Of a DNA stretch of 32,000 bases, positions 16,927-25,788 are shown piece by piece; positions within the stretch are counted from its first letter, which is position 1, and the number at the start of each line of letters is the position of its first letter. The translations under genes and the position numbers were made by a program. The notes beneath the pieces were generated by a model. That model saw only the letters and a list, made by a program, of their open reading frames with translations. It did no database searches and was not told the DNA's origin. Source of the stretch: Edaphobacter aggregans (lineage in GTDB: Bacteria; Acidobacteriota; Terriglobia; Terriglobales; Acidobacteriaceae); contig NZ_RSDW01000001.1 of assembly GCF_003945235.1 (NCBI RefSeq), positions 60,001 through 92,000 of the forward strand, in the 5' to 3' direction.

Positions 16927-17919
16927 TTGGGGGTTGCGGTGGCGGCTCGCGATTCGCTCTTGGCATTACAGAAGCAAATAGGCCAAACCGTACTCGGTCA
17001 GGAAGCCATGATCGAGCGTCTCTTGATTGGCTTGCTCGCCAACGGAAATCTCTTAGTCGAAGGCCTGCCGGGACTAGCCAAAACGAGGGCGATCAAAAAG
17101 TTGGGCAAGTTCCTCGATGCAGGTCTCTCGCGAATTCAATTTACTCCAGACCTTCTGCCCTCGGACATTACTGGATCTGAGATTTATTACAGTTCGGAGG
17201 GCAAGAGCGAATTCCGCTTTCAACCCGGACCAGTCTTCAACAACCTTGTCCTCGCCGATGAGATCAACCGCGCCCCTGCAAAGGTTCAGGCGGCGCTTCT
17301 GGAGGCAATGGAAGAACGGCAAGTTACGGTGGCAGGTAAGCCTCATGTTCTGCCGAAGCTGTTTCTTGTGATGGCAACACAGAATCCCATCGAACAGGAA
17401 GGAACGTATCCGCTACCAGAGGCGCAATTGGATCGTTTCTTGATGCATGTCTATGTCGACTACCCAGAAGAAAAGTCTGAGCGCGACATCATGTTGCTGG
17501 TGCGTGGGGAGGAAGCGGATACCGATACCGCGCCAACAGACGCAGCGATCGGCGAACGCACCTCGCAGGACGTGATCTTCGCAGCGCGGGCAGAGATTCA
17601 CGCTATACACATGGCTTCGGCAGTCGAGCAATATATCGTCGCCCTGATTGAAGCCACGCGCTACCCCGAGCGATACGATAAAGACCTTCGCAGGTGGATT
17701 CAGATCGGAGCCAGCCCGCGCGGGACGATCGGCCTGGATAAATGTTCTCGCACCTATGCCTGGCTGAAGGGCCGTGACTATGTGAGCCCCGATGATGTGC
17801 AGGCGGTCGCGCACGACGTTCTCCGGCACCGCATCATGCTTAGTTATGACGCACAAGCAGAAGGTATTAAAGCGGATCAGGTCATTAATAAAGTTGTCGA
17901 GATGGTCGCCGTCGCATAA
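16927..17919 (+). CDS. MoxR-family AAA+ ATPase
   Basis: GQEAMIERLLIGLLANGNLLVEGLPGLAKTRAIK (Walker A variant typical of MoxR), LADEINRAPAKVQAALLEAMEERQVTV (Walker B / sensor region) and QNPIEQEGTYPLPEAQLDRF. The start is uncertain: TTG 16927 or GTG 16939. Confidence 0.92.
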   Translation: MGVAVAARDSLLALQKQIGQTVLGQEAMIERLLIGLLANGNLLVEGLPGLAKTRAIKKLGKFLDAGLSRIQFTPDLLPSDITGSEIYYSSEGKSEFRFQPGPVFNNLVLADEINRAPAKVQAALLEAMEERQVTVAGKPHVLPKLFLVMATQNPIEQEGTYPLPEAQLDRFLMHVYVDYPEEKSERDIMLLVRGEEADTDTAPTDAAIGERTSQDVIFAARAEIHAIHMASAVEQYIVALIEATRYPERYDKDLRRWIQIGASPRGTIGLDKCSRTYAWLKGRDYVSPDDVQAVAHDVLRHRIMLSYDAQAEGIKADQVINKVVEMVAVA

Positions 17920-17934
17920 ACAGGATCTCTTGCC

Positions 17935-18864
17935 ATGGGAGCCTATGCCGAACTCGATTCGCTGGTTGCCCTGCAGTTCAAGGCGGGTGGCTTCACTTTG
18001 ACGCACAACCAGCCCGTACATAGCTTGCTCTTTGGCAGGCGCACTTCACACGTGCGCGGTCGCGGTCTCGACTTCGAGGAGCTTCGCGGCTACGTCGCTG
18101 GCGACGACGTACGCAGCATCGACTGGCGAGTAACTGCGCGAATGCAGAAGCCCTATGTGCGCGTTTATTCCGAAGAGCGCGACCGGCCCACCATGTTGGT
18201 CGTCGACCAACGCATCAATATGTTCTTCGGGAGCAAGATTTCCATGAAATCTGTAGTCGCGGCAGAGGTCTCTGCTCTCGCTGCGTGGAGAGTCTTCCAT
18301 CAGGGCGACCGTGTCGGCGCATTCGTTTTCAATGATGAAGTCACCGAAGAAGTGCGAATGCGCCGCAGTCGCGCCACTGTGCTTAGGATTCTTGACCGCA
18401 TCTCCAATCAGAACCATCTGCTACGCAGCGACTCTAGTTCGCAACCCCTCCCCCAACGCCTGAATGAAGTGCTTGAATCTGTCGCTCGGGTCTGCCACCA
18501 CGACGCACTCATTCTTATCGCTAGCGATTTCGACGGCGCCGATGAGGAAACACGCGATCTCTTATTGCACCTGTCGGGCTCGAACGACATCATCTGCTGC
18601 CTGACTTACGATCCTCTTGCCGTCCGCCTGCCCCCCGCCGACCAACTCGTCGTCAGCAACGGCGAGTTGCAGGTCGAGCTTCAACTGGGACAGGAGAAAG
18701 TGCGCAAAAGCATTCTTGAAGCTTCCGATAAGCGAATGACCACGATCCTCTCATGGCAGCATGAGTTGGGAGTTCCAGTTCTTCCTCTCAGCACTGCAGA
18801 AGACGTTCCGCAGCAGGTGCGGCACCTGCTGGGAAAGATTGCGAATCGAGGCAGGCGAATATGA
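17935..18864 (+). CDS. DUF58 domain-containing protein (MoxR-associated, VWA-like)
   Basis: GRGLDFEELRGYVAGDDVRSIDWRVTARMQKPYVRVYSEERDRP is the DUF58 signature. It holds the canonical position downstream of MoxR. Confidence 0.88.
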   Translation: MGAYAELDSLVALQFKAGGFTLTHNQPVHSLLFGRRTSHVRGRGLDFEELRGYVAGDDVRSIDWRVTARMQKPYVRVYSEERDRPTMLVVDQRINMFFGSKISMKSVVAAEVSALAAWRVFHQGDRVGAFVFNDEVTEEVRMRRSRATVLRILDRISNQNHLLRSDSSSQPLPQRLNEVLESVARVCHHDALILIASDFDGADEETRDLLLHLSGSNDIICCLTYDPLAVRLPPADQLVVSNGELQVELQLGQEKVRKSILEASDKRMTTILSWQHELGVPVLPLSTAEDVPQQVRHLLGKIANRGRRI

Positions 18865-19307
18865 CAGCTCCGCTCGACAAACTGCACGACTTCTATCAAC
18901 CGCCTCCGCCCGCGTGGACCCCACAGACCATCGGCTGGTACGTTCTCTTTGCAATTGCCGGATTACTCGTTTTATGGATCATCATTCACAGCATTCGCCG
19001 ATGGTTAACCAACCGTTACCGGCGAGAGGCTCTCCGCGAACTGGAGCTACTTCCAGCGGATCAGTTCTCAGGCCTTCTCAAACGCACTGCGCTCGCCGCA
19101 TGGCCGCGCGAGAAAGTTGCCTCGCTCAGCGGCGACGAGTGGCTAAATTTTCTAAACGAAACCAGCGGTGATCCCATGTTTCGTCAGGCTCCTGCTAACG
19201 GCATCGAAGAGGTGTCACTGCGACCAGCATCACTATCCGGCGCGGACGAGCAGCAGATGAGAAAGATCGCCGCAGAATGGATTCGGAGACACCATGTACA
19301 GACTTGA
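18861..19307 (+). CDS. DUF4381-like single-pass membrane protein
   Basis: ATGA overlap with the DUF58 stop. LHDFYQPPPPAWTPQTIGWYVLFAIAGLLVLWIII...RYRREALRELELL matches the DUF4381 pattern (P-rich/W motif, one TM helix, then YRR.AL.EL). Confidence 0.72.
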   Translation: MTAPLDKLHDFYQPPPPAWTPQTIGWYVLFAIAGLLVLWIIIHSIRRWLTNRYRREALRELELLPADQFSGLLKRTALAAWPREKVASLSGDEWLNFLNETSGDPMFRQAPANGIEEVSLRPASLSGADEQQMRKIAAEWIRRHHVQT

Positions 19308-20334
19308 ATATCCGTGGCTGCTTGCCTTGCTGCCACTGCCTCTTCTCGTCTACTGGCTCTTACCTCCCTATAAGGAGGAGCAAGATTCCCTGCGTCTGAC
19401 GTTCTTTCATTACATCAGTTCAAGCCTCGGCCTCACACCCGAACCTGGAGCGGTCGTCCCCAAAACAAACTGGCTACAGAAGATCGTCGCTCCAATTTGC
19501 TGGTGCCTGATTCTTCTGGCGCTGGCTCGGCCCCAGTTGATTGAGCCTCCCATCCAGAAAATCGAGCCAGGGCGGGACCTCATGCTGGCCCTCGACATCT
19601 CTCAATCGATGGAAACACCGGATTTTCGCACACCCGAAGGTAAACGTCTGCGCCGCGTCGATGCAGTAAAACAAGTCGTTAGCGAATTCATTCGAAAGCG
19701 AAAAACTGATCGTATCGGTCTCATCGTCTTTGGTCAGGCTGCCTATCCGGTTACGCCTTTCACGCTTGACCATGACGCATGTCTGAAGATACTCGGCCAG
19801 ACCGACGCCGGCATGGCCGGTCCTCAGACGATGATCGGCGATGCTATTGGTCTCGCAATCAAGCAGTTCGATCATAGCGAAGCCAAACAACGCGTTCTGG
19901 TTCTCCTGACGGACGGCAACGATACCGGCAGCCGAATGCCACCACGTAAGGCCGCTGAAATAGCCCGTCAGAACGGCATCACCATACACGTCGTAGGCTT
20001 AGGCGATCCTCACGCCACTGGCGAGTACAAAGTTGACTATGCTGCGTTGAACGATATCGCCAAGGCAACCGGCGGACAGGTCTTCCATGGCGAGAATCGT
20101 GTCGAACTCGAAAAAGCTTACGCGACCCTCGATAAAATCACCCCACAGAATTTCAAGACCCTCAGCTATCAGCCCCGCCGCGAGCTCTTCATGATTCCAC
20201 TTGCGGCCGCCGTTGTCCTACTCGTTGGCTATCACCTCCTCATGCTTATCGTCAGTCTGTTGGCGCGACTCTTCTCACGCCGCCGTGAATCGGATGAGAC
20301 CGAAACCTCCGCCGTCTTAAAGGTGAATGTATGA
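19294..20334 (+). CDS. VWA domain-containing membrane protein (BatA-like)
   Basis: N-terminal TM helices, then DLMLALDISQSM (MIDAS DxSxS) ...IGLIVFGQAAY...VLVLLTDGNDT...IHVVGLG and a C-terminal TM helix. It overlaps the upstream gene by 14 nt. Confidence 0.88.
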   Translation: MYRLEYPWLLALLPLPLLVYWLLPPYKEEQDSLRLTFFHYISSSLGLTPEPGAVVPKTNWLQKIVAPICWCLILLALARPQLIEPPIQKIEPGRDLMLALDISQSMETPDFRTPEGKRLRRVDAVKQVVSEFIRKRKTDRIGLIVFGQAAYPVTPFTLDHDACLKILGQTDAGMAGPQTMIGDAIGLAIKQFDHSEAKQRVLVLLTDGNDTGSRMPPRKAAEIARQNGITIHVVGLGDPHATGEYKVDYAALNDIAKATGGQVFHGENRVELEKAYATLDKITPQNFKTLSYQPRRELFMIPLAAAVVLLVGYHLLMLIVSLLARLFSRRRESDETETSAVLKVNV

Positions 20335-21935
20335 GCGAGTGGTGGGCATCGGTGCATTTTCTGCGCCCACATTGGTTGTGGCTTCTGATGGCCGTGCCGG
20401 TTATCTATTTAGCGTTCCATATTCGCGACGACGTACGCGCCCGTTGGAAGCGTTATATCGACTCCGAACTTCTGGATCATCTGATCGTAGCGCGTAAGCA
20501 GCGCTGGCACTTCCGTCCTATTCACATGATCTGTCTCCTCATCATTCTGGGTACCGTTGCGATCGCCGGCCCGACTTGGAAGCGTGAACAACCTCCATTC
20601 ACAGAGGACAAGGCGCCCCTGGTCATAGCGCTCGACCTCTCGCGGACAATGGACGCGATCGACCTCGATCCGACACGGCTGGAGCGCGCAAAGCTGAAAC
20701 TACGCGATCTAATCAAAGCCAGAAATGGTGGACGCACTGCGCTCTTCGTCTATGCAGACACCACACACATGGTTCTGCCTTTTACGACAGACGATTCCCT
20801 GTTCGATCTCTATCTGAGTTCTCTCTCTACATCTTTAATCCCGGGTGGGGGAAAAGATACGGCAAAGGCGCTTCGCACGATCGAAGATTTTCTGAAAGAC
20901 GAGCCCGTCCCCGGCACCATTCTTTTTGTCAACGATGGAATCGAGCCTCAAGCGTTACCAACATTCCAACAATTTACCGGGCAGGACGAAAACCAGAACG
21001 ACATCCTCGTGATGGGTGTAGGCACTTCCAGTGGAGGCCCTGTTCGTACGGCGAACAATGGCTTTCTTACCGACCGCTTCGGACGCCGCGTCTATACAAA
21101 GCTCGACGTGAACACTCTTCGTTCGTTAAGCCGCATCGACATCTCCGCCACCACGCTCACACTCAACGATGATGACATCCACTGGATACAGCGCCGCGTA
21201 CAGCATCATCTTCAGGCCGTACAGCAGCGCAACAGCAAGACGCGCTGGATCGATGAAGGTTACTGGCTCACTATTCCCATCACGGCTATTACTGTTTTCT
21301 GGTTCCGCAAAGGGTGGACTGTGCGCTGGACCTCAGCCGCGTTCGCAGTCCTCTTTATTCTTCCGTCTGCAGGCGCTCAAACACGCTTCTCGTGGATAGA
21401 CCTCTGGATGACACACGATCAACAGGGCTGCTACTACTTCGAGAGGGGTGATTACCAAAAGGCCGCCGAGAAGTTCGAGGATCCACTCTGGAGGGGATTG
21501 GCTCTCGCGCGCGCAGGAGACTACGAGAGCGCGCTGAACGCCTTCGCCCTCAGTGATTCCCCAGAAGCCTGGTACAACCAGGGCAATGCACTCGCACACA
21601 CGGGCAAATATCCTGAAGCGATACAGGCTTACCAGCAGGCGCTCGCACGACGTCATCCATGGCCCGAAGCGCAGGAAAACCTTACTCTCGTCCAATCGCT
21701 TATTCCAAAAGCAAAGAACAAAGATAAAGACAAAGATCAGCAGGAGACGGCACCCGATCTTCCGCCAGACCAGATGAAATTCGACGAAAAGGGTCAGAAA
21801 GGGAAAAAGACCCAACAGGTCAAACTCGATCCGAAGAAAATGGCTGACATCTGGATGCGCAATATCCAAACCAGCCCCGCTGAATTTCTCCGGCGCAGAT
21901 TCGCGATTCAGGCTGCACAGGAGCGTCACCCATGA
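20331..21935 (+). CDS. VWA domain plus TPR repeat protein (BatB/BatC-like fusion)
   Basis: ATGA overlap with the upstream stop. LVIALDLSRTM (MIDAS) ...ILFVNDG, then TM helices, then TPR-like YYFERGDYQKAAEKFED...AGDYESALNAF...YNQGNALAHTGKYPEAIQAYQQAL and a Lys/Asp-rich tail. Confidence 0.85.
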   Translation: MSEWWASVHFLRPHWLWLLMAVPVIYLAFHIRDDVRARWKRYIDSELLDHLIVARKQRWHFRPIHMICLLIILGTVAIAGPTWKREQPPFTEDKAPLVIALDLSRTMDAIDLDPTRLERAKLKLRDLIKARNGGRTALFVYADTTHMVLPFTTDDSLFDLYLSSLSTSLIPGGGKDTAKALRTIEDFLKDEPVPGTILFVNDGIEPQALPTFQQFTGQDENQNDILVMGVGTSSGGPVRTANNGFLTDRFGRRVYTKLDVNTLRSLSRIDISATTLTLNDDDIHWIQRRVQHHLQAVQQRNSKTRWIDEGYWLTIPITAITVFWFRKGWTVRWTSAAFAVLFILPSAGAQTRFSWIDLWMTHDQQGCYYFERGDYQKAAEKFEDPLWRGLALARAGDYESALNAFALSDSPEAWYNQGNALAHTGKYPEAIQAYQQALARRHPWPEAQENLTLVQSLIPKAKNKDKDKDQQETAPDLPPDQMKFDEKGQKGKKTQQVKLDPKKMADIWMRNIQTSPAEFLRRRFAIQAAQERHP

Positions 21936-23260
21936 GACGCACTTTCATCGTTATGCTTGCGGCGATCTCATCGCTCACTGTTCCTGGGCAAATACCCATC
22001 GTCCGTGCGAAATTCGAACCCAGCAGAGGCATTCTAGTCGGCCAGCCGGTACGCCTTGTTGTTTCAATCTTCGTTCCCAACTACTTCGCCGGGGCCCCCG
22101 ATTTTCCCGAATTCGAAATCGAAAACGCCATCGTGGTGCTGCCTCAGGACCGTCCGCAGAACTCCAACGAGCAGATCGGCGGAGTGACGTATGCGGGCAT
22201 AACTGAGACCTATGTCGTCTATCCGCAGCAACCCGGCGATTTCAAGCTGCCAGCAGCGCAGATCACCGTTCCTTACGCTATTGCGCCGCCAAAGACCGCT
22301 ACGGCTCACGTACCTCTTCCTGCTCTTACCTTCCATGCCGACGTCCCTCTCGCAGCGAAGAGCCTGGACTACTTTCTTCCCACCACAAGTCTGACGATTC
22401 AGCAAAAATGGTCAGCTCCTCTAAAGAGTCTCCGAGCCGGAGACTCCGTCGAGCGAACCATCACCGTGACGGCGACAAAGATGCAAGCCATGTTGATCCC
22501 GCCCCTCCCCCTCGAAACACCAGAAGGTATTCGCATCTACGAGGAAGAGCCAATCGTCCAGGATCAGAAGACGGATCGCGGCGAATTTGTTTATGGCCGC
22601 CGCACACAATCCGCAAAGTACTTTATTCGGAAGGCGGGCGATTACACGCTTCCGGCAGTCGAACTGAAGTGGTGGAATCTCTCCACAAATCGTTTGGTGA
22701 CGGCCACGCTCCCCGCCATTCGCTTCACGGCTGCCGCAAATCCAGATTACGTCGCCGAACTGCCGCCAGAGCAAGAACCCGTGCCGGTGAAGCAGCTCAA
22801 ACACGGCAGCCTATGGAGCAAATATAAATTCTGGATTCGAGTTGCTGCCCCATGTTTCGTGGCATTTATTTTTATACTCTGGATAGCTTGGCATTCTCTC
22901 CCACGCATCTATCGCCGGCTACAAGCATGGCATTACAAGCGGGAACATTCTGAGCCTGCGTATTTTCGCGATCTTCAGTTTTCATGCAGGCGAAGCCACG
23001 CAATGCAAGCGTACGATCGATTTTTGAGATGGCTTACACTCGCGCACCCAGGTATGCCTGTTCATGAGTTTTTGCGTCAGGCAGACGATCCCGTACTGTC
23101 CTCAGAAATAAACGATCTAAGCGCTTCACTCTATGCGAAAAACAATCAAGGTCCCCATCAATGGAACGGCGAGCGAATGGCTCATCACTTACGGCAGCAT
23201 CGCAAGGTTCAAAATATCCGTACGATGAAACGACAATTTCTGCCGAAGCTAAATCCTTGA
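21932..23260 (+). CDS. BatD-like (oxygen-tolerance family) membrane-anchored protein
   Basis: ATGA overlap with the upstream stop. Signal peptide, beta-rich extracytoplasmic region (VGQPVRLVVSIFVPNYF...), a late TM helix (FWIRVAAPCFVAFIFILWIAW) and a cytoplasmic tail. The architecture and operon position are typical of BatD. Confidence 0.72.
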   Translation: MRRTFIVMLAAISSLTVPGQIPIVRAKFEPSRGILVGQPVRLVVSIFVPNYFAGAPDFPEFEIENAIVVLPQDRPQNSNEQIGGVTYAGITETYVVYPQQPGDFKLPAAQITVPYAIAPPKTATAHVPLPALTFHADVPLAAKSLDYFLPTTSLTIQQKWSAPLKSLRAGDSVERTITVTATKMQAMLIPPLPLETPEGIRIYEEEPIVQDQKTDRGEFVYGRRTQSAKYFIRKAGDYTLPAVELKWWNLSTNRLVTATLPAIRFTAAANPDYVAELPPEQEPVPVKQLKHGSLWSKYKFWIRVAAPCFVAFIFILWIAWHSLPRIYRRLQAWHYKREHSEPAYFRDLQFSCRRSHAMQAYDRFLRWLTLAHPGMPVHEFLRQADDPVLSSEINDLSASLYAKNNQGPHQWNGERMAHHLRQHRKVQNIRTMKRQFLPKLNP

Positions 23261-23308
23261 TACCTACGTGTGCTATTTGGGTGATTTAGAAGGATTTAGG
23301 CAAAATTA

Positions 23309-23396
23309 TGGCGGAGAGACAGGGATTCGAACCCTGGATACCTTGCGGTATACACGCTTTCCAAGCGTGCGCCTTCAGCCACTCGGCCATCTCTCC
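23309..23396 (-). tRNA. tRNA-Ser (anticodon GGA), class II with long variable arm, CCA encoded
   Basis: The reverse complement folds by hand as follows. Acceptor GGAGAGA/TCTCTCC; anticodon stem CACGC/GCGTG with loop TTGGAAA (GGA); variable arm ATACC-GCAA-GGTAT; T-arm CAGGG-TTCGAAT-CCCTG; then G-CCA. Total 88 nt. Confidence 0.93.
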
Positions 23397-23566
23397 GCTG
23401 CGTTTTAGCGCTTTTTTGAATCTACCACAGTTACCACGTTGCCGTGACTGGGGGGAACAAAGCCACGGCTGCGGTTTCAAGCCAAAGAGCAGGACAGTCG
23501 CATAGGAGAAAGATAAATCCAACACGTCTCTTGACGGATGGGTGGCTGGCTATTAATAATCCCCAA

Positions 23567-23797
23567 ACGACAGGTGTAATAACCTCAATCGCTACCTTCG
23601 TGGGATACAGCGCCAAAGGCATCGGCAAGCGCGTCAAATACATCTTTGACTTCAATAACTTCGAGCGATACTTCGGCGGCCTTGCCTCCGACAGCGAGCT
23701 CAGTTACGCTGTCCAACAGTTCTTCTCCAACGGTGGAACCGAAGCGCACGTTGTCCGTACACCAGGGCTTGCAAAAACTAGAGCGGCAAACAACTTG
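23567..23797 (+). pseudogene. relic N-terminal fragment of a contractile-tail sheath gene
   Basis: The translation TGVITSIATFVGYSAKGIGKRVKYIFDFNNFERYFGGLASDSELSYAVQQFFSNGGTEAHVVRTPGLAKT aligns colinearly with residues ~22-93 of the intact sheath at 25789 (TGVATSIAAFVGWAPQG...WADFQRQFGGLDSRSLLGYSVNQFFLNGGQQAYIVRLVDGTAKT). It lacks the PTYPGVYIEE start and everything after about 75 aa, and it ends in a stop. Confidence 0.62.
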
Positions 23798-23988
23798 TAA
23801 CTTTCGGCTCGGGATGAGCCTGAACCATCCCTCCCCACCCGAAAACGGGCCCAATTAGATTAGAAAAAGCGCCTCACCAAAACGTCTAGCCAAGGGAAGG
23901 CCGTCGTTTTGCCGATGCCAACCTACCGGAAGCCCGGGGACGCGGGCTCGGTCATACAATTCTCTTTCTTCGCCCCAAAAGAGCCTTC

Positions 23989-25026
23989 ATGGAACGCGAA
24001 CTTTCTGACGCTGCACTTCAGAGCCTCTTCGGCGACCTTGGATTCGTCAGCAACTGCGACGAACTGCTACCGCTGCTGCAGCGTGCCCGCAAGGCTGCGG
24101 AAATCAGCGATGTTACTGTTTTGATCGAAGGCGAAACCGGGACCGGCAAGCAGGTTCTCGCGCAGGCTATCCATCGGCTCGACCGCAAACGCAACCGTTT
24201 TGCTTTCATAACCGTGCACTGCAGCACCATCACCGAAGCCCTCGCCGAAAGTGAGCTCTTCGGCCATCAGCGTGGAGCCTTCTCCGGCGCCGTCGGTAGC
24301 CGCAAAGGCCTGTTCTGTTCAGCCCAGCATGGCACCCTGTTCCTCGATGACGTCAACGATCTGCCCGTTGCCCTGCAACCCAAATTACTAGACGTACTCC
24401 AGCGTGGCATTCTCCGTCCTGTTGGGTCGGACACAGAGATGCCCGTCGATGTCCGCATCATTGCCGCCGCTAACCGCCCGCTCGAGTCGCTGGTCCGCGA
24501 AGGCCGCTTCCGCCTCGACCTCTATCACCGGCTCAACGTAGTTCGCCTTGCACTTCCTCCCCTGCGCGCCCGCCGTGCGGATCTGACCGCACTCATCCTC
24601 GCCTTCGCCGATCGCCACGCTGCACTCTACGCTCCGGTCGTCAACGTAGAGTCCGAGCTGCTTCGCTTCCTTGAATCGCAGCCGTTACTGGGCAACGTGC
24701 GCGAACTCGAAAACGCCGTGCAGCGGATGCTCTTCCTCAAGACGGAAGGCTCCTCGCTCTGCATCGACGACTGGATGCGCCAACTCCGTTCCGACGTCAC
24801 CCAGCAGGAAGTGGATCTGCTAGCCGATTCCGCCAGCGGCGTCTGGCAAAGCATCGCCAATGGCAGTCTCGGCTACGACCAAGCGCTCCAGGAGATTGAA
24901 AAGCGTGTGCTGCAGGCGGCCATCGCCGTTCCCGGATGGACCCGGCGCAAAGTCGCCCAGCGCCTCCATATGAGTGAGCGCGCCCTCTACTACAAAATGC
25001 GCGCCTGCGGCCTCACCGCCCGCTAG
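23989..25026 (+). CDS. sigma-54-dependent transcriptional activator (bacterial enhancer-binding protein) without a sensory/receiver domain
   Basis: Walker A GETGTGKQ lies about 50 aa from the N-terminus. Also present: ESELFGHQRGAFSGA (GAFTGA-loop variant), GTLFLDDV (Walker B), RFRLDLYHRLNV, PLRARRADL, GNVRELEN and a C-terminal Fis-type HTH (RKVAQRLHMSERALYYKMRACGL). Confidence 0.9.
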   Translation: MERELSDAALQSLFGDLGFVSNCDELLPLLQRARKAAEISDVTVLIEGETGTGKQVLAQAIHRLDRKRNRFAFITVHCSTITEALAESELFGHQRGAFSGAVGSRKGLFCSAQHGTLFLDDVNDLPVALQPKLLDVLQRGILRPVGSDTEMPVDVRIIAAANRPLESLVREGRFRLDLYHRLNVVRLALPPLRARRADLTALILAFADRHAALYAPVVNVESELLRFLESQPLLGNVRELENAVQRMLFLKTEGSSLCIDDWMRQLRSDVTQQEVDLLADSASGVWQSIANGSLGYDQALQEIEKRVLQAAIAVPGWTRRKVAQRLHMSERALYYKMRACGLTAR

Positions 25027-25102
25027 CACCTTCGACCGAAAGACTTCTTAGGCAGCTTCTCGACTTCCCTGGGCCAACCCTGTGTTGAGCCACTGCCACT
25101 TA

Positions 25103-25130
25103 TTGCAGAGTCCTGCACAGACTTGCAGAA
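25103..25130. promoter_or_regulatory. three helically phased YTGCASAR repeats (candidate enhancer / UAS)
   Basis: TTGCAGAG (25103), CTGCACAG (25113) and TTGCAGAA (25123) have TGCA cores exactly 10 bp apart, about 260-290 bp upstream of the candidate -24/-12 elements. GCCACTGCCA at 25089-25098 is repeated at 25226-25235. Confidence 0.35.
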
Positions 25131-25156
25131 GGTTCCGAGGACACCACTAGCTAACT

Positions 25157-25179
25157 CAGGGTACTCGACTTGTACCCTG
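25157..25179. promoter_or_regulatory. perfect 8-7-8 inverted repeat (operator, or weak terminator of the EBP gene)
   Basis: CAGGGTAC (25157-25164) tcgactt GTACCCTG (25172-25179). The nearest T-run (GTGTTTTCC) starts about 10 nt after the stem, so it is not a textbook intrinsic terminator. Confidence 0.35.
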
Positions 25180-25346
25180 CTTCACCTTGTGTTTTCCTCT
25201 GCTTGCCCTCGATGCGCCTCCATTAGCCACTGCCAAATCCTGCGTATCCTGATTCGCTGCCCCGTCCTCAAAACGGCTCGTCATCTTGGCTTAAGAAATT
25301 TTTCTTCAAGCAAATTCGCCCACTTTTTACCGCTTTCTTACATTAT

Positions 25347-25403
25347 TGGGCAAAATTTGGCGCTCCTTCTTCAAAGAAACAGCCGATTGGGCTCTCCCGT
25401 GCA
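25347..25403 (+). promoter_or_regulatory. two tandem candidate sigma-54 (-24/-12) promoters upstream of the eCIS operon
   Basis: Both have the correct GG-N10-GC spacing against the consensus TGGCAC-N5-TTGCA: TGGGCA-AAATT-TGGC (25347-25361) and TGGGCT-CTCCC-GTGCA (25388-25403). Both are preceded by AT, and an AT-rich tract (25290-25345) lies upstream. The match quality is only moderate. Confidence 0.35.
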
Positions 25404-25430
25404 TTCGCTCTGTCGGCTGGCGCTGGATAC

Positions 25431-25700
25431 TTGCGCTCCGCCAGTGAGGTGGACCCACTGATACACGAAGGAGATACCGTTCGTTTCCAAGTTGAAGATA
25501 TCTTCCTGCCCGCAGCTGACGACCTGCCGAAATCACTCACCCCGGCAGATCAGCTGGAAGGCACAGTCGTGAACTTCTCCGACTCTGGATTGCTTCCTCG
25601 CGTCTTCGCCGTAGTCGATGTCATCGCGCGCCTAAGCGTCGTCGTACCGGTCGAAAAGCTTCAGCTTCAAAACCTCGGGAGGACCCCCAACATACTCTAA
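25431..25700 (+). CDS. small hypothetical protein (leader ORF of the eCIS operon; start uncertain, TTG 25431 or GTG 25449)
   Basis: 89-codon ORF on the same strand as the sheath gene, ending 88 nt before it, with coding-like GC3-biased codons. It has no ATG start and no convincing SD at the candidate starts. I recognise no family. Confidence 0.3.
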   Translation: MRSASEVDPLIHEGDTVRFQVEDIFLPAADDLPKSLTPADQLEGTVVNFSDSGLLPRVFAVVDVIARLSVVVPVEKLQLQNLGRTPNIL

Positions 25701-25788
25701 CCCGCGCCCGGACGGAATCCGTGCACGGACGTGCCGTGCAACAGCTACCAATCGGAGCGTATTCGCTCCCTGGAAATGGAGAGAACCG

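Follow-up and report, generated by a model that had tools for sequence, protein, structure and literature searches.

The 32-kb window analysed here (Edaphobacter aggregans, contig NZ_RSDW01000001.1, positions 60,001 to 92,000; all coordinates below are those of the window) carries a gene for a sensor-less sigma-54 enhancer-binding protein (EBP; 345 aa, 23989..25026, + strand) ahead of the structural genes of an extracellular contractile injection system (eCIS). Comparison of related loci suggests, with a probability of roughly 80%, that this protein acts by classical EBP/sigma-54 activation of an operon starting near 25414. A conserved -24/-12 element and a set of upstream dyads fit RpoN-dependent activation, which is well supported at the sequence level. 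The initial annotation had taken the eCIS sheath gene as the direct target across an empty spacer; the operon appears instead to be led by a conserved small gene (25458..25700, +).

The EBP gene and the sheath gene (25789..27297) are co-oriented on the same strand, as had been claimed, and the gap between them measures 762 bp, which agrees with the 760 bp given earlier. It is not the plain spacer then described, as it houses the conserved open reading frame (ORF) of the small gene, the dyads and the promoter. The putative sigma-54 promoter TGGGCTCTCCCGTGCA occupies 25388..25403 (+), with its GG at 25389-90 and its GC at 25401-02, and was located by conserved alignment columns and a matrix scan. 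The gap contains exactly two GG-N10-GC elements, at 25348 and 25389, as had been noted; their number is not above chance (2 observed against 2.7 expected from shuffles), and only the element at 25389 is conserved among relatives, both in position and in sequence; the one at 25348, which lies inside an AT-rich tract, is not.

In a MAFFT alignment of the intergenic regions of 12 loci, which share 58% mean identity, the TGG and GTGCA of 25388-25403 are invariant. When a simple sigma-54 matrix was applied more widely, 86 of 92 loci proved to have a -24/-12 element some 40 nt ahead of the small-ORF region, and the 63 distinct sequences give a family promoter consensus of TGGCC-N5-CGTGCA. The median matrix score of the promoter across loci coincides with the 95th percentile of scores for windows drawn at random from these loci. 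The matrix scan of the spacer suggested by the initial annotation brings out an element shared by most loci of the family, the window's own copy of which scores weakly. The predicted transcription start lies near 25414, and the scan of 25027-25788 predicted neither a sigma-70-like promoter nor a terminator.

The AT-rich tract between the proximal dyad and the promoter (25290..25357, 67% AT by composition) possibly serves as a bend or an IHF-type site; no strict IHF consensus was found in it. A structured 5'-untranslated element was also considered and dropped, since the segment from the promoter to the small-ORF start folds with only -2 kcal/mol and without covariation. A search for rpoN that covered the window and 833 kb of related loci found no such gene; RpoN was present in all three Acidobacteria genomes of a 2011 survey.

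The phased repeats reported earlier for the spacer are borne out as two 16-bp dyads placed 20 bp apart, to which a third was added at 25230-25245. The dyad consensus is CTGCAA-N4-TTGCAG. The distal upstream activator sequences, dyad 1 (CTGCCACTTATTGCAG, 25093..25108) and dyad 2 (CTGCACAGACTTGCAG, 25113..25128), were identified by alignment and motif scan; each departs from the consensus at one position, and they are the sole matches with two or fewer mismatches in the whole window. The proximal dyad 3 (CTGCCAAATCCTGCGT, 25230..25245) was recognised from alignment columns and is strong in relatives, its CTGC/T/C columns being invariant in the 12-locus alignment. Dyad 1 is conserved at about -295 from the promoter TGG, and in the set of loci as a whole the dyads concentrate in two zones, -300 to -260 and -170 to -150 relative to the promoter. 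At least two dyads occur in 70 of 72 intergenic regions, at a density of 6.5 per kb as compared to 0.72 per kb in the background. Upstream of the EBP gene itself, dyads or -24/-12 elements are essentially absent (2/64 loci). This region serves as an internal control for the dyad counts; its lack of sites argues against autoregulation of the EBP, and this possibility was set aside.

The linkage of EBP and eCIS, on whose conservation the initial annotation had staked its proposal beforehand, is kept in relatives. A genome scan with the EBP retrieved 12 Acidobacteriaceae loci at 70-87% EBP identity, and all 11 with enough flanking sequence display the order EBP, about 400 bp, small ORF, sheath and tube. 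The same order persists at 65% EBP identity (L013, L015) and at 57% (L094). Anchoring on the small ORF in metagenomes yielded 77 further loci, 76 of which extend at least 700 bp upstream, and 72 of these 76 have the EBP ahead of the small ORF. The EBP, its intergenic sites and the small ORF, referred to below as the cassette, always stand at the 5' end of the cargo cluster.

Several loci depart from this layout in their details. In L072 (1624-4313) a 3.4-kb insertion (a DUF305 gene and an opposite-strand ORF of 675 aa) splits the EBP from the small ORF. The EBP of L014 and the small ORF with its eCIS of L093 are located on one 218-kb contig, 22 kb apart, with the dyads kept beside the small ORF. 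In L024 (6268-11907), L041, L089 and L046 the cassette heads an eCIS with a Pvc16-like gene before sheath and tube, and in L024 also an ATPase gene. L066 has a NusG-family gene (767-1417) inserted after the small ORF and before the sheath gene, an arrangement that recalls RfaH-type control of eCIS.

The cassette is also found ahead of a different cargo. In L079 (6269-11171, matched by L081) and L083 (3638-8717) it is followed by a homologue of the type-1 encapsulin shell protein, which matches encapsulins of solved structure with an E value of 1.9e-13; genes for a sheath or a tube were not found within 6 kb in L079/L081 or L083. This arrangement, with the cassette heading an encapsulin operon, is represented by two distinct loci, which also carry a protein of 1240-1290 aa without a Pfam or PDB match.

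The domain content of the EBP accords with the input-domain-free, PspF-like architecture that had been assigned to it. Pfam detects Sigma54_activat (PF00158; aa 25-187, E 1.2e-57), AAA_lid_14 (193-272) and HTH_8 (300-338), that is, an AAA+ core, a lid and a Fis-type helix-turn-helix (HTH), and no further Pfam domain in the 345 aa, a sequence that is 100% identical to a database protein of E. aggregans. Walker A (GETGTGK, aa 48-54, 24130..24150) is preceded by 47 residues, close to the approximately 45 counted earlier. The AAA+ profile begins already at residue 25, and this leaves no space for a receiver, GAF, PAS or V4R domain. Sensor I (AAAN, aa 159-162) and the arginine-finger segment (RFRLDLYHR, aa 173-181) are present, as is the C-terminal HTH (24946..24999), which lies within HTH_8 (E 4.2e-09).

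Assignment of the protein to PspF, NtrC, NifA or another named equivalog was rejected, all NCBIfam scores being far under their cut-offs; the PspF models TIGR02974 and NF008622, for instance, gave 201 and 161.8 bits against cut-offs of 443.55 and 529. Some representative proteins of 670-1030 aa (P0166-P0173) align with the EBP over two or three distinct segments each, so that a single chain may contain sigma-54 AAA+ domains in tandem.

Both deviations from the canonical AAA+ motifs that had been described are present, namely GAFSGA in the L1 loop (aa 96-101, 24274..24291) and the Walker B segment LFLDDV (aa 117-122, 24337..24354), in which Asp121 stands in place of the catalytic, switch-forming Glu. 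The earlier tally was short by one, as it had overlooked His77 (24217..24219), which occupies the Asn position of the glutamate switch (N64 of PspF; VHC for LNC) in a HMMER alignment to NifA and ZraR. GAFSGA and LDD[VI] occur in all 120 nearest EBP homologues (65-100% identity), and His77 in 117 of them. Walker B and the switch thus read DD for DE and His for Asn, the acidic character of Walker B being retained.

Among 150 diverse EBP representatives at 50% identity, the combination N/GAFTGA/DE (switch residue, L1 loop and Walker B pair) prevails with 63 domains, and GAFSGA with N and DE occurs 11 times; the motif parse missed many sequences, so that these counts are lower bounds. DD was seen in only a few of the representatives, mostly short proteins and chiefly the closest relatives. 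The distinct cassette EBPs found via the small ORF include 37 of type H/GAFSGA/DD, five of type H/GAFTGA/DE, three of type H/GSFSGA/DD, two of type H/GAFTGA/DD and one of type N/GAFTGA/DD. The switch-position His is thus shared by cassette EBPs with canonical DE, and all of these motif types have the same dyads, promoter and small ORF. On this comparison the GAFSGA/DD form is best read as a derived state in a family whose canonical members resemble ordinary sigma-54 activators. Because canonical GAFTGA/DE orthologues carry the same cassette, the variant form most likely still functions with sigma-54, and this comparison is the strongest argument for such function.

Characterized proteins indicate what such changes may do. 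BkdR of Bacillus subtilis is a validated activator with a natural GAFSGA loop (PMC3162934), and the PspF mutant T86S has a lower affinity for the closed complex, yet is active. In PspF E108D the ATPase is reduced, the closed complex is still engaged and pre-opened templates are favoured (PMC4132715). The protein described here differs from BkdR and from the T86S and E108D mutants in combining both changes with the His at the switch Asn, fixed clade-wide. The initial annotation had drawn, in part from the motif deviations, a tight off/on control of the operon; the deviations do not by themselves suggest this, as the changes are clade-fixed and GAFSGA is functional in BkdR. By analogy with the PspF mutants, one would expect sigma-54 to be contacted less strongly and ATP to be hydrolysed more slowly, not a tighter switch.

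A further observation concerns the -12 element, which reads TTGC in all five DE loci of the cassette (L032, L037, L046/47, L060, L077) and GTGC, ATGC or CTGC in 36 of 37 DD loci; Ser in the L1 loop was seen in cassette loci only together with DD. A weaker motor co-adapted with an easier-to-open promoter would be an attractive idea to account for this pattern. In a neighbour-joining tree the DE loci group together as a single clade, so that the co-variation may reflect a single event, and a statistical claim for it was rejected.

The small gene encodes 80 aa from CTG 25458, a start at GTG 25449 being possible. A single-sequence search brought up 43 homologues of it and a profile search 716 (E <= 0.01), none of which bears a name or a Pfam domain. 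In 60 distinct homologous cores, the differences at codon positions 1, 2 and 3 number 1003, 840 and 2410, and this third-position excess indicates a coding frame. A conserved canonical start is missing, codon 25458 varying among CTG, TTG and CAG across the aligned genome loci; the start region (25449-25461) sits after a GAGG/GGNGG ribosome-binding site. Gene calls for the homologues begin at many positions, some of them at codon 25458.

The protein matched nothing in Pfam, NCBIfam or PHROG. AlphaFold2, run on a 37-sequence alignment, returned a small beta-barrel with a pLDDT of 81, and the predicted fold is SH3/Tudor/KOW-like. A Foldseek search against the PDB and viral models retrieved generic barrels of this kind, none at E <= 0.001, and no plasmid homologue was found. 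The small ORF stands before two eCIS gene orders and before an encapsulin operon, which ties it to the regulatory module rather than to a particular machine and favours a regulatory role.

Certain observations weigh against sigma-54 activation of this operon. The promoter of the window scores 6.6 with the position weight matrix, under the background 90th percentile of 8.2, and departs from the consensus at two places, with G in place of C at position 4 and G in place of T just before the TGC. Four mismatches are found in the proximal dyad of this genome, and the Glu-to-Asp change cuts ATPase activity and impairs the opening of duplex DNA in PspF (PMC4132715). Since no terminator was predicted between the EBP gene and the small ORF, read-through could contribute to transcription of the latter. 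A few relatives have the EBP but no adjacent target, namely L014 and also P0165, for which the flanking DNA lay outside the comparison, and a few loci have the small ORF but no EBP nearby.

The weak match of the -24/-12 element taken by itself, together with three off-consensus residues central to ATP hydrolysis and sigma-54 contact and the impairment of PspF E108D on duplex DNA, might be explained by a degenerate EBP that no longer uses sigma-54, like TyrR, DhaR and HupR, with a sigma-70-type promoter and the dyads as operators only. This is highly improbable, since the GAFxGA loop is intact, a Thr-to-Ser exchange works in BkdR and leaves PspF T86S active, and the sigma-70-dependent homologues, unlike this EBP, show deletions or Pro/Glu at the L1-loop position. 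The sharing of the cassette by fully canonical GAFTGA/DE orthologues, the GG-N10-GC spacing kept in 86 of 92 loci and a gap devoid of any predicted sigma-70-like site point the same way. An arrangement in which the EBP and sigma-54 drive the small gene or a leader only, the eCIS having its own signal in the 88-bp pre-sheath gap or depending on an antitermination-type factor, appears unlikely as well. It draws on the genes found between the small ORF and the sheath gene or in its place (ATPase and Pvc16 in L024, NusG-family in L066, encapsulin in L079 and L083), on the RfaH/NusG-type control already known for eCIS, and on a hairpin-like GGAGCG-TATT-CGCTCC at 25754-25769, just upstream of the sheath ribosome-binding site, which is limited to the closest relatives. 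Against this, the genes are tightly packed and co-oriented without a predicted terminator, the pre-sheath gap is conserved only around the ribosome-binding site, and the cassette is invariably the head of the cargo cluster.

It is a real possibility, albeit one held at less than even odds, that the small SH3-like protein belongs to the particle, as a structural part or in its assembly, and that the EBP is governed by its own expression level without a protein partner. The small gene does lead a structural operon, its fold is generic, and no regulatory domain was detected in its product with Pfam, NCBIfam or PHROG. On the other hand, the gene travels with the EBP and not with one cargo, as seen from the two eCIS gene orders and the encapsulin operon, and it stays with the promoter where the EBP is displaced.

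Sigma-54 activation of the operon by the EBP may then be pictured as follows. The 345-aa protein would be an enhancer-binding protein without an input domain, whose Fis-type HTH would bind the three CTGCAA-N4-TTGCAG dyads, the adjacent pair about 275-295 bp and the single one about 158 bp upstream of the promoter. Its AAA+ ring would loop over the AT-rich tract and, driven by ATP, open the sigma-54 closed complex at TGGGCTCTCCCGTGCA. The transcript would run from about 25414 through the gene of the 80-aa SH3-like protein into those of the sheath, tube, baseplate-like, Pvc16-like and ATPase proteins, and onward. As the EBP has no sensor, the decision to fire would lie elsewhere, either in how much EBP is produced from a separate promoter of its own or in a partner acting in trans, for which the small co-inherited protein would be the obvious candidate. 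The clade-fixed His77, Ser99 and Asp121 probably make a slower activator of weaker contact, matched to the non-consensus GTGC of the -12 element.

A bolder form of this proposal, which must be regarded as speculative and on balance doubtful, would see a self-contained portable cassette in which the small protein supplies the missing input as a feedback partner of the PspA/HrpV kind, and the switch (His77/Asp121) and Ser99 have co-evolved with the GTGC element; this cassette would have been taken up more than once to gate costly nanomachines, namely eCIS with at least two gene orders and an encapsulin operon.

PspF of Escherichia coli likewise consists of an AAA+ core and an HTH without an N-terminal sensor, and activates a sigma-54 promoter from sites lying upstream of it. 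The operon activated in the Psp system begins with the gene of the antagonist PspA, a layout mimicked by the position of the small ORF. The EBP is not an orthologue of PspF, no PspA-like gene is present in the window, and the genes are co-oriented, not divergent. Trp56 of PspF, which contacts PspA, aligns by eye with Arg/Asn here, and Asn64, Thr86 and Glu108 are replaced by His, Ser and Asp, respectively.

In function, the closest parallels to the EBP are VasH, Sfa2 and the GAF-less Sfa3. VasH of Vibrio cholerae and Sfa2/Sfa3 of Pseudomonas aeruginosa are sigma-54 activators encoded inside type VI secretion system (T6SS) clusters, of a kind that drives those genes, and Sfa3 also lacks a GAF sensor (PMC13584744). 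They differ in that VasH and Sfa2 have N-terminal regulatory domains, VasH sensing Hcp, in that the T6SS is not of Afp/PVC type, and in that reports on them mention no conserved small leader gene. HrpR/HrpS of Pseudomonas syringae are sensor-less EBPs that turn on an injection apparatus (PMC3105312). This pair is distinguished by being hetero-hexameric, by acting on hrpL in a sigma-factor cascade and by serving a type III secretion system. HrpV antagonises HrpR/HrpS in trans.

For eCIS, the regulators named in two large surveys are the TetR-like Afp6, GerE/LuxR, BTAD and RfaH/NusG-like proteins. These adjoin eCIS operons as the EBP does here, and none of them is a sigma-54 activator; sigma-54 is not mentioned in the main text of either survey, and our literature search found no study describing sigma-54 control of eCIS. 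Sigma54_activat does figure among the eCIS 'shell' domains in the supplementary tables of Geller et al. 2021, where it occurs 49 times and in 4 phyla (1.59-fold, q = 0.04). The same tables give, for Leptothrix cholodnii, Lcho_3032 (360 aa, Sigma54_activat and HTH_8), Lcho_3033 (71 aa, no domain) and afp16 and, for Pelobacter propionicus, a receiver-containing EBP with a small ORF. The co-occurrence of EBP and eCIS is consequently on record though unanalysed, and the claim that this control mode is uncharacterised for eCIS stands only in so far as no study of it was found. EBP control is known for the T6SS; for eCIS only this supplementary listing came to light. The gene order in Leptothrix and Pelobacter indicates that the layout probably extends beyond the Acidobacteria.

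Downstream of the small gene, the sheath gene (25789..27297, +; Pfam Phage_sheath_1 and Phage_sheath_1C) is followed on the same strand by genes for a gp19-like tube protein (27309..27836; Phage_T4_gp19, E 1.7e-44) and a T4_baseplate-like protein (27848..28594; T4_baseplate, E 1.1e-05, with a weak PHROG baseplate-hub match). A conserved eCIS ORF of 241 aa (28579..29304, +) is syntenic in related loci and without a family match in Pfam, NCBIfam or PHROG. An Afp16/Pvc16-like protein (29301..30500, +; Pvc16_N, E 2.8e-43) and the 5' part of an Afp15-like AAA+ ATPase (30512..32000, +), whose translation shows Walker A GPSGTGKT at the end of the window, complete the series.

As regards baseplate, spike and eCIS_core (DUF4157) genes, the window stops inside the ATPase gene; in orthologous loci, orthologues of the ATPase contain WHD and AAA domains and are followed by eCIS_core genes (L013, L015, L093). 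Sheath, tube, Afp16/Pvc16-like and Afp15-like ATPase genes all lie in one cluster of the window. Because of this structural gene content and the eCIS_core genes downstream in orthologous loci, the cluster, known here from its genes alone, is assigned as a contractile injection system of the Afp/PVC type.

On the other side of the EBP gene, a MoxR-type AAA ATPase and a BatD-domain protein are encoded within 16927-23260, and the adjacent ORFs resemble a MoxR/Bat operon by eye; these Bat genes are not conserved beside the cassette in other genomes. A tRNA-Ser(GGA) gene (23309-23396, -) lies next to the relic of a second sheath gene (23570-23797, +; residues 23-93 only), which is placed between the tRNA and the EBP gene. 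A promoter-like sigma-70 site was predicted in the relic region, at 23531-23560, and an Rfam scan of 23000-26200 returned the tRNA only. The relic is 51% identical to the resident sheath and 64% identical to the sheath type of L011; the remnant suggests that the site once carried a different eCIS, since replaced or deleted. The tRNA-Ser as a general integration site was rejected, the adjacency being confined to strains that are at least 99% identical.

The way in which eCIS are turned on is mostly obscure, and efforts are under way to engineer them into tools for delivering proteins. The present analysis offers a concrete control circuit, made up of operator dyads, a promoter and an activator, for a large group of soil eCIS and probably also for proteobacterial ones that share the layout. 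The natural series of EBPs (N/H, T/S and E/D) on one promoter architecture amounts to an experiment on the glutamate switch and the L1 loop, and the small conserved protein is flagged as a candidate trans-regulator of a sensor-less EBP. The occurrence of the cassette before an encapsulin operon hints that it may be a general gate for large self-assembling structures.

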